From a virus: 64,000 nt of DNA. The position numbers and the translations under genes are program-made. Numbering within the stretch: position 1 is the first letter of the stretch; each line of letters opens with the position of its first letter. Under the pieces are notes generated by a model, which did not search any database, was not told the DNA's origin, and was given only the letters and a program-made list of their open reading frames with translations. The stretch spans positions 1 to 64,000 of the IMG/VR virus record IMGVR_UViG_3300045988_039373; one strand, given 5' to 3'. Shown in pieces: positions 2,605-7,742 of the stretch.

Positions 2605-3087
2605 TTATGCAACTTGTTCTGGTTTGAGAACCTTTTTCTTAAAGTCCTCATAGGCTTTAGCAGCAGCCTTAAATTCTTTGGAATTGGTGTCCTTGATACG
2701 AGCCATTGCAAGTTCCAATCGATGAAGTTCGTTTCTGGTTTGTTGTCTCCATTTCTTCCGAGCAAGAGTATCAACTACATCCTCCGGATATACGTATTTA
2801 ACTTCTCGATTGGAGATTACCTGTTCGATGATAGAGGGTTTTTGTTGTTCCTTTACTTCCTTGACAACCTGTTCTTTTTTGGAAGTTTTGGTTTTTGGAG
2901 AGAGTTCTACCAATTTAGCATTGGCAAACTTAGTGGCAGCTTCTTGAGCATCTTTTACCAATTCCTTTTTAGTCTTTTTGGCCTTAGGAGCAGAAGCCTT
3001 AGTAGTCTTAGAATTTTTAATTCCTTCAAGTTGTTCAGCAACCTTAGTTGCAACGAGGTTAGTAACCTTGGTTTCATTCTTTTTCAT
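2605..3087 (-). CDS. Lys-rich, histone-H1-like low-complexity protein (160 aa).
   Basis: The sequence is rich in K, A, E and T (SAPKAKKTKKELVKDAQEAATKFANAKLVELSPKTKTSKKEQ). It has its own promoter box (3138-3147) and its own terminator (2561-2590). The antisense ORF 2599-3243 is a codon-bias shadow. Confidence 0.7.
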   Translation of the reverse strand: MKKNETKVTNLVATKVAEQLEGIKNSKTTKASAPKAKKTKKELVKDAQEAATKFANAKLVELSPKTKTSKKEQVVKEVKEQQKPSIIEQVISNREVKYVYPEDVVDTLARKKWRQQTRNELHRLELAMARIKDTNSKEFKAAAKAYEDFKKKVLKPEQVA

Positions 3088-3137
3088 AATGTCTATATTA
3101 AAATTGTTAATAAAATAAAGTTTATTTCTTTTCTCTA

Positions 3138-3147
3138 TGCAAATATA
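3138..3147 (-). promoter_or_regulatory. Early-promoter box TATATTTGCA, copy 2 of 5.
   Basis: tgcaaatata on the plus strand, 50 nt upstream of the ATG at 3087. The extended match TTATTCTTATATTTGCA is shared with the copy at 9588. Confidence 0.6.
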
Positions 3148-3202
3148 AGAATAATATATTTAATACAAAAATATTTCTATATTATTTTTCTATTTGCCCA
3201 GG

Positions 3203-3721
3203 TTAATCGGCTAGGAAGTCGAAGATTTCTGGAGGATAGTTAATTTCGTCCTCTGGGTCATTTAAGTAATCTTCGTAATCCTCATTATATTTATCGTAGA
3301 GGTTATCTTGTGATGTATTGGGTACCCTTGTACATCTTTCAGGATGTTTATTTACGAAGTCATAAGCTTCTTGAGTAGTCATTACCTTGTCTGAGATAAA
3401 TTCGTAGGTTACATAAGAATAAGTTTCACCCAATCTAGAAACTTCATATTGCTGGTATCCAGATTTCTCAATCTTATAGATTTGATTTTCTGGAATCGTT
3501 TCTATTTCTACCCTATATTTATACCATTGCTTCTTTTTCTCTTCCCTTGGTTTAATTCCCAGGCTATCTGAAAGATAATGTAACCTGGTCAAGGGACTTT
3601 CTAAACGAGAAGGAGCAATGCTCACTTCCTCTATGGGGGCATTATTCTTACTCCCTAAGTAAAGTAGCATTGCTCCTATGGCAATTAATAAACCCTTAGT
3701 TATTTTAGTTCCAGAGTTCAT
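3203..3721 (-). CDS. N-terminally membrane-anchored hypothetical protein (172 aa).
   Basis: The track ORF 3203-3895 is trimmed to the ATG at 3719-3721 (MNSGTKITKGLLIAIGAMLLYLG, a hydrophobic anchor). This leaves a 17-nt overlap with the upstream KTSC gene. Confidence 0.6.
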   Translation of the reverse strand: MNSGTKITKGLLIAIGAMLLYLGSKNNAPIEEVSIAPSRLESPLTRLHYLSDSLGIKPREEKKKQWYKYRVEIETIPENQIYKIEKSGYQQYEVSRLGETYSYVTYEFISDKVMTTQEAYDFVNKHPERCTRVPNTSQDNLYDKYNEDYEDYLNDPEDEINYPPEIFDFLAD

Positions 3722-3971
3722 ACCCAGTAGTTTTAAACTTATCTTTGATATTCTTTGCCAAGTATTTACCTTTTGATTCTGCTTGGTGTAATTCATTGCA
3801 AACCTCGTAAGGTACCTTATCATATCGATATACCCTATTTCCCTTAAAAGCAACCCAAAGTTGTTGTTTCTTTGAGTCATACCCATATCCCTCAATATTA
3901 GAGGATTCGCAAGGAATCATTTCAACTCCCGTGTTCATTTCTACTGATTCTAAGTATTCGTTCTTTTCCAT
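3705..3971 (-). CDS. KTSC-domain protein (88 aa).
   Basis: IEGYGYDSKKQQLWVAFKGNRVYRYDKVPYEVCNELHQAESKGKYLAKNI matches the KTSC pattern from memory. Confidence 0.55.
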   Translation of the reverse strand: MEKNEYLESVEMNTGVEMIPCESSNIEGYGYDSKKQQLWVAFKGNRVYRYDKVPYEVCNELHQAESKGKYLAKNIKDKFKTTGYELWN

Positions 3972-3981
3972 GTCTATATAT

Positions 3982-4353
3982 TTAAAATTTTAAAAGTGTT
4001 AGTTCTGGGTGGAATTTGAGATTTGCCCTTTGGAAGATTGCCCAGGTACCAAGTACTCCCTGAGAATTAGTATGTACCCATTCATCTTCCATTCTGAACA
4101 ATATGTGAGAGCATACCAGCATTTGGTATTCACTTAGCATATTTATCAGTTGAGGGGTATTCTCCATTTCTACGTATAATTCAATGTGCTCATCTAGTGC
4201 TCGAATTATTTCGTTATCCTCAATCTGAAGGAGTTTTTTGATTAAGTCTTGGGCAATGTCATTCCCATTTTTAACATCCTCTTTGATTGAGTTGAGTGAT
4301 TCAATCTGAATACTAGCAATGAGCTTTACGATGTCTTTTGTTTCCTTGTCCAT
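3982..4353 (-). CDS. Acidic hypothetical protein (123 aa).
   Basis: The track ORF begins at a TTG (4374). The first ATG is at 4351-4353 (MDKETKD), 16 nt downstream of the promoter box. Confidence 0.65.
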   Translation of the reverse strand: MDKETKDIVKLIASIQIESLNSIKEDVKNGNDIAQDLIKKLLQIEDNEIIRALDEHIELYVEMENTPQLINMLSEYQMLVCSHILFRMEDEWVHTNSQGVLGTWAIFQRANLKFHPELTLLKF

Positions 4354-4369
4354 AATTAAATTTTCTTTA

Positions 4370-5945: not shown

Positions 5946-5991
5946 TTATATTAGGTGAATAATTGAATTTCCTATTTACATAATACCATAG

Positions 5992-6369
5992 TTATACCTT
6001 CCTAATTTGGGTTGGGATTTCTTTAATTTCTAGGATTTCTAAACTGCATTGTTTTAAAACTGCCTCGAGTTGAAGTATATCTTCTACCTCTTTCTGAGAT
6101 AAGTCCGTAAAAGTTTGTTCAAAAGTTTCTTTCTGTTCCCCCCTTATAAAATTAAATTGGGCAACAATATAAGTCCCATGAAGTTTTTTATTCAGGGCTC
6201 CTTTAAGAGATATGAGTTTTCTTTTCAGATAATTACTCTTCAACCTATGGGATTGGTATTCGCCTTTCTTACCCTTACTAAGAGCTACCTTTTTAAGGTA
6301 CGAAACATAATCTAATTCTCTGAGAGTTTGATTAATGTTTCCCACTAATAATCTTAAGTCTTTTTCCAT
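5992..6369 (-). CDS. Hypothetical protein (125 aa).
   Basis: ORF track; ATG at 6367-6369. Confidence 0.6.
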   Translation of the reverse strand: MEKDLRLLVGNINQTLRELDYVSYLKKVALSKGKKGEYQSHRLKSNYLKRKLISLKGALNKKLHGTYIVAQFNFIRGEQKETFEQTFTDLSQKEVEDILQLEAVLKQCSLEILEIKEIPTQIRKV

Positions 6370-6578
6370 TTGGGTCTTTGCATTACTTGGTTAGATACTT
6401 CCTGAGTTTCTTCTGATAGCATTTCTCTTGCCTCATTTATTATATTGATGGCAAGTTCCCTTTCATCTGGTCCCAGGTTTAATTCTTTATCTTCTAGTGC
6501 ATCAGTATAAGTATTTATTAGATTATCCAATGCAAGTATTCGAATGTTCTTTCGAATTGCTAATTTCTCTTCTTCCAT
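6354..6578 (-). CDS. Hypothetical protein (74 aa).
   Basis: ORF track; ATG at 6576-6578. Confidence 0.55.
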   Translation of the reverse strand: MEEEKLAIRKNIRILALDNLINTYTDALEDKELNLGPDERELAINIINEAREMLSEETQEVSNQVMQRPKWKKT

Positions 6579-6721
6579 GGGTATAAAAAATTAAAGCCCA
6601 CTACCTTCACAGGCAATGAGCTTTTGGCTGAACAACGTCCTAAGTGTAGATGTTATTCATATGAACTTAAACTCTAAATTTATATAGCAGACATATGGGA
6701 TAGTAGTTAGTAAGTTAGAGT

Positions 6722-7099
6722 TTAATCTTCTGATTCTTCCTCTTCTTCTTCCTTAGCCTTTTTGTTTTTCGGAGAACAAATAACGCCATGTCCTTTCTTA
6801 GACTTAACGGTAAGAGTTCCCGGAACGAATGAAACTGAAGTTGATACCGGTTTGCCATCCGTAACCAATACAGAAGTAACCACTACACCCTGATAGCCTT
6901 CCTTGTTCTTAACGGCATAACCAAAGTTCATTACCTTGGATTTGTCGTTAATGGCAATAACGTCGATTTGCTTGCTGTTAGGGCGTTGTTCAGCCGGCCG
7001 ATTCTTAAGTGCCTCTTGACGAGCCTTACGTTTAGCTTCTTTTTCGGGGTCTTTTTCCTTATCCCCTTTCTTCTTGGAGTCTGATTTCTTTGTTGCCAT
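6722..7099 (-). CDS. Bipolar charged protein (125 aa): basic N-terminus, beta-rich core, poly-Glu C-terminus.
   Basis: MATKKSDSKKKGDKEKDPEKEAKRKARQ ... KKAKEEEEEESED. Confidence 0.7.
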   Translation of the reverse strand: MATKKSDSKKKGDKEKDPEKEAKRKARQEALKNRPAEQRPNSKQIDVIAINDKSKVMNFGYAVKNKEGYQGVVVTSVLVTDGKPVSTSVSFVPGTLTVKSKKGHGVICSPKNKKAKEEEEEESED

Positions 7100-7168
7100 A
7101 ATTTTTAATGTTTTATAAGTTAATGGTTATTATAAGTAAACTTCTACGTTTATTAATAGTTGATAGTA

Positions 7169-7192
7169 AAGGTAGGGAAATTTCCCTACCTT
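7169..7192 (-). terminator. Intrinsic terminator after the poly-acidic gene.
   Basis: Perfect 24-nt palindrome AAGGTAGGGAAATTTCCCTACCTT, 29 nt downstream of the stop at 7221. Confidence 0.65.
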
Positions 7193-7220
7193 CTTTTAAA
7201 TCTTGAATACGGTTACCAGA

Positions 7221-7742
7221 TTACTTTTTCCCTTTCTTGCCTTTACCTTTGGCTTCTTTCTTTGCCGGCAATTTGAGACCGAGTTCTTTAGCGATTGCTT
7301 TACGGAGTTTTTCGATGTCGTCTTCATCATAATCGTCTGGGTCAGTTTCAAGGTCTTTGTCGTCGCAGACATCCTCAAGTTCTTCGAAGTCCATTTCGGC
7401 AAGTTCTTCACCGGTCAGTTCTTCCTCTTCTTCTTCCTCTTCGGAATCATCATCATCATCATCATCATCATCATCATCATCATCATCTTCCTCATCGTCA
7501 TCATCCGATTCCTCTTCTTCTTCCTCTTCTGAATCATCATCATCATCGTCTGATTCTTCCTCTTCTTCTTCTTCCTCGTCATCGGATTCAGAACCAAAAA
7601 GGTCTTCGGCTTCTTCGGCAGAAAGCATAATAGGAGCAGGGATAATCTTTACTGAGCCGTCTTCGTACTTAATGATGATTGCACCATTGATTTCTGTTCT
7701 GGAAACTTCTTTCAGTTCCACTTCTTTTTTCTTCTTAGCCAT
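7221..7742 (-). CDS. Poly-Asp/Glu protein (173 aa) with a basic C-terminal tail; possible DNA mimic or chaperone-like protein.
   Basis: SESDDEEEEEEEESDDDDDDSEEEEEEESDDDDEEDDDDDDDDDDDDDDSEEEEEEEE, followed by ...LPAKKEAKGKGKKGKK. All other ORFs spanning 7196-7836 are frame or strand shadows of this tract. Confidence 0.75.
   Translation of the reverse strand: MAKKKKEVELKEVSRTEINGAIIIKYEDGSVKIIPAPIMLSAEEAEDLFGSESDDEEEEEEEESDDDDDDSEEEEEEESDDDDEEDDDDDDDDDDDDDDSEEEEEEEELTGEELAEMDFEELEDVCDDKDLETDPDDYDEDDIEKLRKAIAKELGLKLPAKKEAKGKGKKGKK
7420..7590 (-). repeat. Low-complexity GAA/GAT/TCx coding tract (acidic run).
   Basis: The plus strand is a run of ttc, atc and ctc triplets. Approximate bounds. Confidence 0.8.
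7446..7487 (-). repeat. Perfect (ATC)14 trinucleotide microsatellite, equal to 14 consecutive GAT Asp codons.
   Basis: Counted directly: 42 nt of uninterrupted atc from 7446 to 7487. Confidence 0.95.

Follow-up and report, generated by a model that had tools for sequence, protein, structure and literature searches.

Genes for charged proteins at the start of a hypothetical-protein block

We analyzed a 64,000-nucleotide stretch of viral DNA (positions 1 to 64,000 of IMG/VR record IMGVR_UViG_3300045988_039373, hereafter the window), in which an original prediction had placed a set of five genes for extremely charged, low-complexity proteins between positions 2605 and 7742. Genes in the first 12 kb of the window are all on the minus strand, and the five open reading frames (ORFs), which we label A to E by increasing coordinate (Table 1), were all present on that strand. 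Their composition was evaluated against the 78 non-nested minus-strand ORFs of at least 70 amino acids (aa) in the window. Protein E is 61% charged, with a net charge of -62, an isoelectric point (pI) of 4.05, and a minimum 40-residue entropy of 1.25 bits (median of the 78 ORFs, 3.38). Protein C is 55% charged, with a net charge of +29, 33% Lys, and a minimum entropy of 2.16 bits, and these two have the lowest complexity of all 78 ORFs. The three most Lys-rich ORFs are C, A (21% Lys, net +17), and D (19% Lys, net +8, with the tail EEEEEESED), compared to a proteome mean of 9.3%; the window's three most Lys-rich proteins and its most acidic one are thus all found within 5 kb. The claim of extreme composition was therefore borne out for A, C, D, and E, which are outliers in entropy or Lys content, but not for B, the composition of which is ordinary (33% charged, net +7). 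Judged from its sequence, the basic product of 8974-9552 would be a better candidate than B for a fifth member of the set.

The window probably derives from an ~85-kb phage of gut Bacteroidales that resembles Gubaphage and the 'Flandersviridae'. Those phages have colinear genomes of ~80-85 kb organized in structural, DNA replication, and hypothetical-protein blocks, their hosts are Bacteroidales, and their core genes encode PolA, primase, helicase, thymidylate kinase, dUTPase, and a homing endonuclease (PMC8008677, PMC7895897). The hypothetical-protein region follows the replication module in the description of the 'Flandersviridae' (PMC8008677), and a run of hypothetical proteins is one of the three regions of Gubaphage (PMC7895897). 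We based the assignment on the agreement of gene content and of 84- to 87-kb relatives with these descriptions. The window encodes PolA, an HNH endonuclease, thymidylate kinase, dUTPase, a thymidylate-synthase-like enzyme, and a gp32-like single-stranded-DNA-binding protein (SSB), and IMG/VR contains hundreds of near-identical contigs of 84 to 87 kb. The DNA polymerase is 63 to 65% identical to those of two unannotated human-faecal phage records, and a megablast search of the region against 50,697 phage records gave no nucleotide match. SbcC-like and PDDEXK genes are located directly upstream of the region, and the locus lies at the start of the family's hypothetical-protein block. The Bacteroides-type host of the original prediction agrees with this picture, in that a Bacteroidales host is likely and the window carries Bacteroidota-type promoters.

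Genes A, C, D, and E form a conserved core set

A homolog search with A alone returned only relatives of 84 to 99% identity, and later homolog searches used multi-clade profiles in place of this single query. The locus search was seeded with the MT121964.1 ortholog of 8974-9552 and reached at least six clades, with identities to the seed from 99% down to 58%. In every clade sampled, syntenic orthologs of A, C, D, and E were present, at 30 to 68% identity, similar to neighboring core genes, and the order across clades was E-D-(two small genes)-C-...-A. All four genes were found in 132 of the 161 loci, and we assumed that the remaining loci were cut by contig ends. B was limited to the window's clade, as were 3982-4353, 5992-6369, 7780-8028, and 8433-8996. 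Conservation in related phages, which the original prediction had proposed as a test, was thus found for A, C, D, and E but not for B, and the frame-disrupted versions that would have spoken against a function were not seen in relatives. In the clade of the window, purifying selection acts on all five genes, with the ratios of nonsynonymous to synonymous substitution rates (dN/dS) given in Table 1.

Of the most distant D homologs, two were located on contigs (L170 and L171), and both have an E-like acidic gene directly upstream of D. The SbcC/PDDEXK context recurs in L170, along with a homolog of C. The pairing of E with D therefore predates the diversity of the sampled family. Altogether, A, C, D, and E are an ancient, co-located core set of this phage family.

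Protein E carries a hypervariable acidic linker

Protein E starts with MAKKK and continues with an N-domain, an acidic linker, an acidic C-domain, and a Lys-rich tail. In an AlphaFold2 (AF2) model, the N-domain (aa 12-49) consists of three strands and a helix, with a predicted local distance difference test (pLDDT) score of ~85, and the C-domain (aa 111-155) of three helices with a pLDDT of 86 to 90. The linker, at about aa 51-108, has no secondary structure in this model and a pLDDT of ~50 to 55. It is encoded by period-3 microsatellites (Table 1).

Among 131 IMG/VR loci, the linker varied from 13 to 71 residues (median, 53) and occurred in 112 distinct sequences, in which D, E, and S made up ~97% of residues; the shortest linker among database variants had ~5 residues (P0121). 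The tract is pure poly-Glu in some clades and a D/E/S mix in others, yet it is always acidic, and the reading frame of E is preserved in 131 of 131 loci. Since the tract stays in frame and acidic and varies in sequence and length, its composition and continuity are selected, not its exact length or sequence. In the deep homologs (L170:5278-5805 and L171:88-597), a Lys/Ala-rich island lies within the acidic tract (PKNKAGKKGKP and APKAKAKSKAKAKV, respectively) and creates alternating acidic and basic blocks. One E homolog is annotated in its source as 'DNA polymerase phi'; we rejected this annotation as a low-complexity artefact.

Proteins A, C, and D join Lys-rich regions to conserved modules

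The N-terminal half of protein A is variable and rich in Lys, Ala, and Thr, and its C-terminal ~70 aa form a strongly conserved domain with the motif NLVEEVxxKREVKYxYPxDxxDTLxRKKxRQQxRNxLxxLELxMxRIxD..SKEF. Protein C has a conserved N-terminal helix motif (NxLDPxKDW....HG) and a second conserved motif (YDYPxxDGxxM....KKxYRxxxR), followed by a variable Lys-rich tail and a nearly invariant C terminus (KKxKKEED). The YxYP...KKxR..R motif common to A and C suggested paralogy, which was not significant (hhalign probability, 9%; BLASTP E value, 0.42).

Protein D starts with MATKK and comprises a variable Lys/Ala arm, a helix (aa 18-32), a beta core, and an acidic C-terminal tail. The core (aa 43-108) has six strands in the AF2 model, with a pLDDT of 80 to 89, and contains the motifs GQRPNSKQ and KKGHG. 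Homologs with less than 30% identity retain the basic arm, the beta core, and the acidic tail. Against 1.84 billion representative proteins, the D-family profile recovered 52 members only, all of them small. The source annotation of one D homolog as 'sRNA-binding protein' was rejected as a low-complexity artefact, and P0387 (2,967 aa, 28 matched stretches) was rejected as an artefact too, being repetitive with incoherent Pfam hits. In a single instance, P0383 (187 aa), a MarR-type helix-turn-helix (aa 4-46) is joined to a D-like beta core. P0383 could be a chimeric assembly or a true fusion; in the latter case, it would hint that the D core has a role related to DNA.

Protein B had been included in the set as an AT-hook protein, and it does not belong there. 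It is 97 to 100% identical in 217 IMG/VR matches and absent from all other clades, and tblastn against the phage collection gave no match. Its GRGRP (aa 78-82) is the sole RGRP in the window proteome (0.08 expected); the sequence around it, PNVGRGRPAGSTT, has no Lys/Arg flanks, and the Pfam AT_hook model (PF02178) did not hit B. Between A and B, 3705-3971 (minus strand) encodes a KTSC-domain protein (PF13619; E value, 2e-19), which is the only Pfam-recognizable protein in the span.

Hairpins and host-type promoters in the block

The original prediction had noted three hairpin terminators, after A, C, and E. These are real and very stable (z scores, -4.9 to -5.8), and a fourth hairpin after D had been overlooked; all four are far stabler than shuffled controls (Table 1). 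Terminator-like sites in positions 1-12000 numbered 18, compared to 8.4 ± 3.0 in shuffles. A hairpin with a U-tail recurs at the same position after D, with unrelated stems, in L082, L088, L142, L147, and L148. The hairpins after A, C, and E are less consistently present across clades: they were found 3' of A orthologs in L082, L088, L142, and L147, comparable ones followed C orthologs in L088, L101, and L148, and that after E was conserved in the window's clade and L147 only.

A 'consensus promoter' (TTAATA-N16-TATAAT, 7156-7129) had been proposed upstream of D. It was not supported, because sigma-70-type matches in positions 1-12000 are fewer than in shuffles (29 versus 43.9) and because other clades lack the site in front of D. 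Instead, a Bacteroidota-type promoter, with the short form TTTG...TATATTTGCAT and the fuller form TTTG(CA)-N17-19-TATATTTG(C/T)AT, preceded the A ortholog in 9 of 9 clades and the 8974-9552 ortholog in 8 of 10, and it was never immediately upstream of C, D, or E. Its minus-strand intergenic copies in the window are at 9590, 4372, 3140, and 4 only, all in the hypothetical-protein block, and no late-promoter motif was seen by eye in the intergenic gaps of the structural region. Gene A, with its own promoter and hairpin, is therefore a monocistronic unit, and E, D, and C are part of an operon with its start near 9590, each of the three being followed by a stable hairpin. Given several host-type (TTTG / TAnnTTTG) promoters, the block is most likely an early host-takeover region. 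The ORFs, conserved promoters, and stable hairpins uphold the view that these genes are real, expressed-looking units in an early-type region.

Other observations concern the same signals. Past the left end of the window, L001:15220-18830 contains at least four further TATATTTG boxes, each before a small ORF, and the products include moderately acidic proteins (123 aa, net -18; 173 aa, net -24); we read this sequence as a multi-promoter early-region layout. The sole plus-strand intergenic copy of the host-type promoter box, TATATTTGCATA, is at 33383-33394 in the gap 33237-33732. It appears to drive a short opposite-strand gene between the structural and replication modules, which may encode a regulator; all other genes of this genome are read from a single strand. 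Just upstream of the operon promoter, 10614-11330 (minus strand) encodes a 238-aa protein present in all clades, which had a weak NCBIfam match to the NGN part of RfaH/NusG (E value, 0.079, far below the cutoff) that Pfam did not reproduce. A genuine match would make this protein an antiterminator of the phage, with a bearing on the operon's internal hairpins.

Table 1. Coordinates and properties of features in the window (dN/dS of A to E, within the window's clade)
Feature	Position	Strand	Properties
Gene A, 160 aa	2605-3087	-	dN/dS 0.07
Gene B, 280 aa, clade-specific accessory	4430-5272	-	dN/dS 0.06
Gene C, 186 aa	5385-5945	-	orthologs in all clades and L170; dN/dS 0.19
Gene D, 125 aa	6722-7099	-	AF2 model; dN/dS 0.09
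Gene E, 173 aa	7221-7742	-	ORF; orthologs in all clades, L170, and L171; dN/dS 0.16
Acidic linker of E, period-3 microsatellites (GAT)20 and (GAA)22 on the coding strand	7419-7592	-	Tandem Repeats Finder (TRF) arrays 7419-7574
Hairpin after A	2563-2590	-	-19.4 kcal/mol, z -5.8; then UUUUAUAA
Hairpin after C	5295-5327	-	-21.7 kcal/mol, z -5.6; then UUUUAUUUU
Hairpin after D	6593-6624	-	-20.3 kcal/mol, z -4.2; good U-tail; then UUUAAUUUUUU
Hairpin after E	7169-7192	-	-17.6 kcal/mol, z -4.9; U-tail weak
Promoter of A	3140-3169	-	-33 TTTG 3166-3169; -7 TATATTTG 3140-3147
Operon promoter, -7 element TATATTTG	9590-9597	-	heads operon 8974-9552 ... E, D, ... C, B
First operon gene, 192 aa, basic	8974-9552	-	39% charged, net +21; all clades, 54-60% identity; dN/dS 0.05
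Thymidylate-kinase-like gene	14564-15151	-	PHROG match
gp32-like SSB gene	17418-18227	-	phrog_1192, E 3e-22
Thymidylate-synthase-like gene	22619-23362	-	PHROG match
dUTPase gene	25330-25869	-	PHROG match

Comparison with known families and systems

Searches with single sequences, conserved segments, and family profiles against Pfam, PHROGs, NCBIfam, and PDB sequences found no relative of the set. Pfam, PHROG, and NCBIfam scans covered all five proteins, and their subthreshold and mutually inconsistent hits to Isocitrate_DH_C, SapB_1, DUF4830, phrog_34306, SASP, FlgM, and ParB_C were rejected as compositional noise. Foldseek searches with the models of E and D gave no PDB match at an E value of ≤1e-3 and, in BFVD, one uncharacterized member of the same family only. 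A, C, D, and E belong to no known family.

The original prediction had named Ocr, ArdA, HU, H1, and AT-hook proteins for comparison, and none of these models gave a profile or fold match. For E, Ocr (PF08684) and ArdA (PF07275) yielded no Pfam, PHROG, or NCBIfam hit at an E value of ≤0.1 and only chance hits in a PDB profile search. For A, C, and D, HU/IHF (PF00216), H1 (PF00538), and Hc1-type proteins had no match in Pfam, NCBIfam, or PDB profiles. Ocr and ArdA share with E a small size, strong acidity, an origin in mobile elements, plausibly early expression, and the capacity to compete with DNA for a DNA-binding protein. They differ in being rigid folded dimers with surface carboxylates that copy the phosphate spacing of B-DNA. 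The acidity of E resides instead in a disordered microsatellite linker of variable length and not on a rigid DNA-shaped scaffold, and the Ocr-type mimic suggested by the original prediction is therefore effectively excluded.

Our comparisons point to SPO1 Gp44 as what would be the closest functional analogue found for E, in common architecture and not by homology. Gp44 is an early host-takeover protein with a folded N-domain (residues 1-55), and its residues 56-122 are disordered, contain 57% Asp/Glu and no basic residues, and bind the beta/beta' subunits of RNA polymerase as a 'flexible DNA mimic' (PMC8208478). Both are small proteins, from the early region in the case of Gp44 and from a probably early region in that of E, in which a folded N-domain of ~50 to 55 aa precedes a disordered Asp/Glu tract of ~60 to 67 aa without basic residues and then a C-terminal region, so that the layouts correspond nearly residue for residue in scale (N-domain 12-49 and linker ~50-110 in E), and both are encoded among many separately promoted and terminated small ORFan genes. 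They differ in host phylum, in the C terminus (a predicted three-helix domain and a Lys tail in E, reported as unstructured in Gp44), and in the tract, which in E is a near-pure D/E/S microsatellite of hypervariable length. A group of separately expressed early ORFans that includes a disordered acidic protein resembling a DNA mimic would be of a kind that has precedent.

Eukaryotic acidic histone chaperones and nucleolar proteins with blocky charge (nucleoplasmin/NPM1, SET/TAF-I, and the acidic tail of HMGB1) resemble E in their poly-Asp/Glu tracts and basic tails and in having co-expressed Lys-rich nucleic-acid-binding partners, a partnership that for E is suggested by co-location; the distant E homologs also share their alternating acidic and basic tracts. 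E has no pentameric beta-sandwich core, no homology to these chaperones, and a prokaryotic context. A comparison of the N-domain, with its three strands and one helix, to a nucleoplasmin-like core likewise gave no Foldseek match. D resembles the SSBs T4 gp32 and T7 gp2.5 in its tripartite layout, with a Lys-rich arm at the N terminus, a core rich in beta structure, and an acidic tail that is short. Its core, however, is a six-strand meander of ~66 aa without a significant oligonucleotide/oligosaccharide-binding (OB)-fold match (best SSB match, SsbA 6bhw_C; E value, 0.35; probability, 0.47; template modeling [TM] score, 0.25), and the phage already has a gp32-like SSB. We therefore rejected D as the phage SSB.

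Possible functions of the set

We tentatively favor a reading, which we regard as possible though short of an even chance, in which A, C, D, and E are early host-takeover polyelectrolyte proteins and E is a flexible nucleic-acid-like decoy. The hypothetical-protein block would be read from several host-type promoters early in infection. A, C, and D would be polycations, in each of which a short conserved module bears a disordered arm rich in Lys; the arms would bind nucleic acid or an acidic partner nonspecifically, and the modules would give specificity. In E, a disordered D/E/S linker of ~55 residues would be held between two small folded domains, with the Lys tail at the end. This decoy would occupy the DNA/RNA-binding surface of a basic target, which might be host RNA polymerase, a nucleoid protein, or a defence nuclease, in the mode of SPO1 Gp44. 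Early timing, nucleic-acid binding, decoy action, and target are all points that we infer.

Several points weigh against this reading. Family-wide conservation and strong purifying selection are more typical of core functions in replication or morphogenesis, and anti-defence and takeover genes are usually accessory. The early timing is drawn solely from promoter motifs. The genome is AT-rich (33 to 37% GC), which partly favors Lys-richness. Natural variants of E have linkers as short as ~5 to 13 residues, and a long polyanion is therefore not strictly required. The set has no sequence or structural homology to any characterized protein, and E shows none to SPO1 gp44 (L163:5889-6599; BLASTP E value, 0.15 over 42 aa). 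Finally, the net charge of E did not covary with that of A+C+D (Spearman rho, 0.15; p, 0.09). We thus found no sign of a stoichiometric partnership and rejected the proposal that the charge of E tracks the summed charge of the other three.

This last result bears equally on a rather unlikely alternative, in which the polycations and the polyanion form a self-contained system directed at the nucleic acid of the phage itself. In that case, E would be a nucleoplasmin- or SET-like chaperone that maintains the solubility of A, C, and D and delivers them to the DNA or RNA of the phage, or else the disordered proteins, being of opposite charge, would form a condensate for replication or transcription by coacervation. 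The four genes are always co-inherited, with E and D adjacent at every depth sampled, and conservation at the level of core genes would suit a function within the phage's own cycle. The proteins are blocky polyampholytes (basic arm and acidic tail in D, basic body and KKEED tip in C, acidic body and basic tail in E), the K/A-rich island in deep E homologs is like nucleophosmin-type tracts, and SPO1 Gp27 provides a precedent for phage-driven phase separation (PMC13401047). The median net charges nearly cancel, at -56 for E versus ~+52 for A+C+D, but this sum may be a coincidence, and the charge of E ranges from about -15 to -73 without following that of its supposed partners. Moreover, the N-domain of E is a three-strand mini-domain unmatched in Foldseek and not a nucleoplasmin-like beta-sandwich. 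We consider improbable a dedicated polyelectrolyte system of A+C+D and E, in which a chaperone-like carrier or coacervate would, early in infection, produce a compartment without a membrane or coat phage or host DNA in the manner of chromatin, and in which the slippage-driven charge of E would serve as a rapidly evolving rheostat.

The set could also consist of four unrelated early ORFans, the charged tracts of which would be largely neutral products of slippage in an AT-rich genome, with function confined to the conserved modules. The tract of E is indeed a GAT/GAA microsatellite, the length of which is extremely polymorphic even between genomes that are nearly identical, and the Lys-rich regions are the least conserved parts of A, C, and D. 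Gene A, at least 1.3 kb from the others, has its own promoter, the motif common to A and C was not significant, and many unrelated small ORFs populate the surrounding block. Neutral slippage is harder to reconcile with an acidic tract that is present in every clade and in the deep relatives, in independent sequences with a median of 53 aa, and that shows 0 frame breaks in 131 loci. The basic arms and acidic tails recurring in D homologs of less than 30% identity, and the clustering of the window's three most Lys-rich proteins and its most acidic one, also count against this possibility, which we hold to be unlikely. Distinctly less probable is the packaging of the proteins inside the virion, where A, C, and D would neutralize or condense capsid DNA or be ejected with it, and E would assist assembly as a chaperone or be co-ejected as an anti-defence protein. 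The original prediction had raised this possibility. The proteins are small and basic, seem to be highly expressed, and have terminators of their own after their genes, and the internal proteins of T4 are also encoded away from the structural block. Yet the genes belong to the hypothetical-protein block and are separated from the structural module by more than 25 kb, they stand behind host-type promoters found nowhere in the window's structural region, and PHROG gave no usable structural link, with one weak match of the Lys-rich region of A to a 'head maturation protease' (E value, 0.012). No signal for capsid targeting or protease cleavage was recognized either, and no search aimed at one was made. 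As to a classical structured DNA mimic of the Ocr/ArdA type with an anti-restriction function, E is very acidic, small, and encoded in the presumed early region; with its acidic residues in a low-confidence variable linker rather than on a rigid helical scaffold with DNA-like charge spacing, and with no family, PDB sequence, or fold match, we regard this as extremely improbable.

Other features of the window

Close to the set, 8433-8996 (minus strand) is a 187-aa basic ORF with a net charge of +29, restricted to the window's clade. It overlaps 8021-8566 by 134 nucleotides and 8974-9552 by 23, and other clades have an unrelated 276-aa ORF in its place. In the replication region, the gp32-like SSB ranks third from the bottom in sequence complexity among the window's proteins, and 41% of its residues are charged. 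The three nucleotide enzymes of Table 1 hint at phage-directed pyrimidine nucleotide metabolism or DNA base modification. The largest ORF of the structural region by far, 55950-62114 (minus strand), encodes 2,054 aa with a net charge of -145.

A prophage scan of 185,579 species genomes found six copies only, none of them a prophage and all in mis-binned contigs of metagenome-assembled genomes (MAGs) or in contaminants; therefore, no host was assigned from them. L164 to L169 include family contigs binned into Collinsella, Mycoplasma, Lactobacillus johnsonii, Clostridium, and Dysosmobacter MAGs, which almost certainly reflects mis-binning or contamination, and a 1.1-kb piece of the phage family in the assembly of a Streptomyces djakartensis isolate is almost certainly contamination.

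Implications for the phage family

Gubaphage and the 'Flandersviridae' are among the most prevalent human-gut phages, and about a quarter of their genome has no assigned function. Four family-wide core genes of that portion are now separated from clade-specific fillers, with a domain map and an expected biochemistry for each (nucleic-acid-binding polycations and a flexible polyanion that would serve as decoy or chaperone), and the hypervariable, in-frame acidic microsatellite of E provides a handy natural strain marker. Should E act in the manner of SPO1 Gp44, phages of Bacteroidota would join those that use a 'disordered DNA mimic' strategy, and E would be a broad-spectrum inhibitor of a Bacteroides DNA-binding machine. 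If instead the four proteins act together, they would be a compact prokaryotic-virus analogue of a histone/chaperone pair or of condensate systems, and a polyelectrolyte system of this kind would be shared throughout one of the phage families most prevalent in the human gut.

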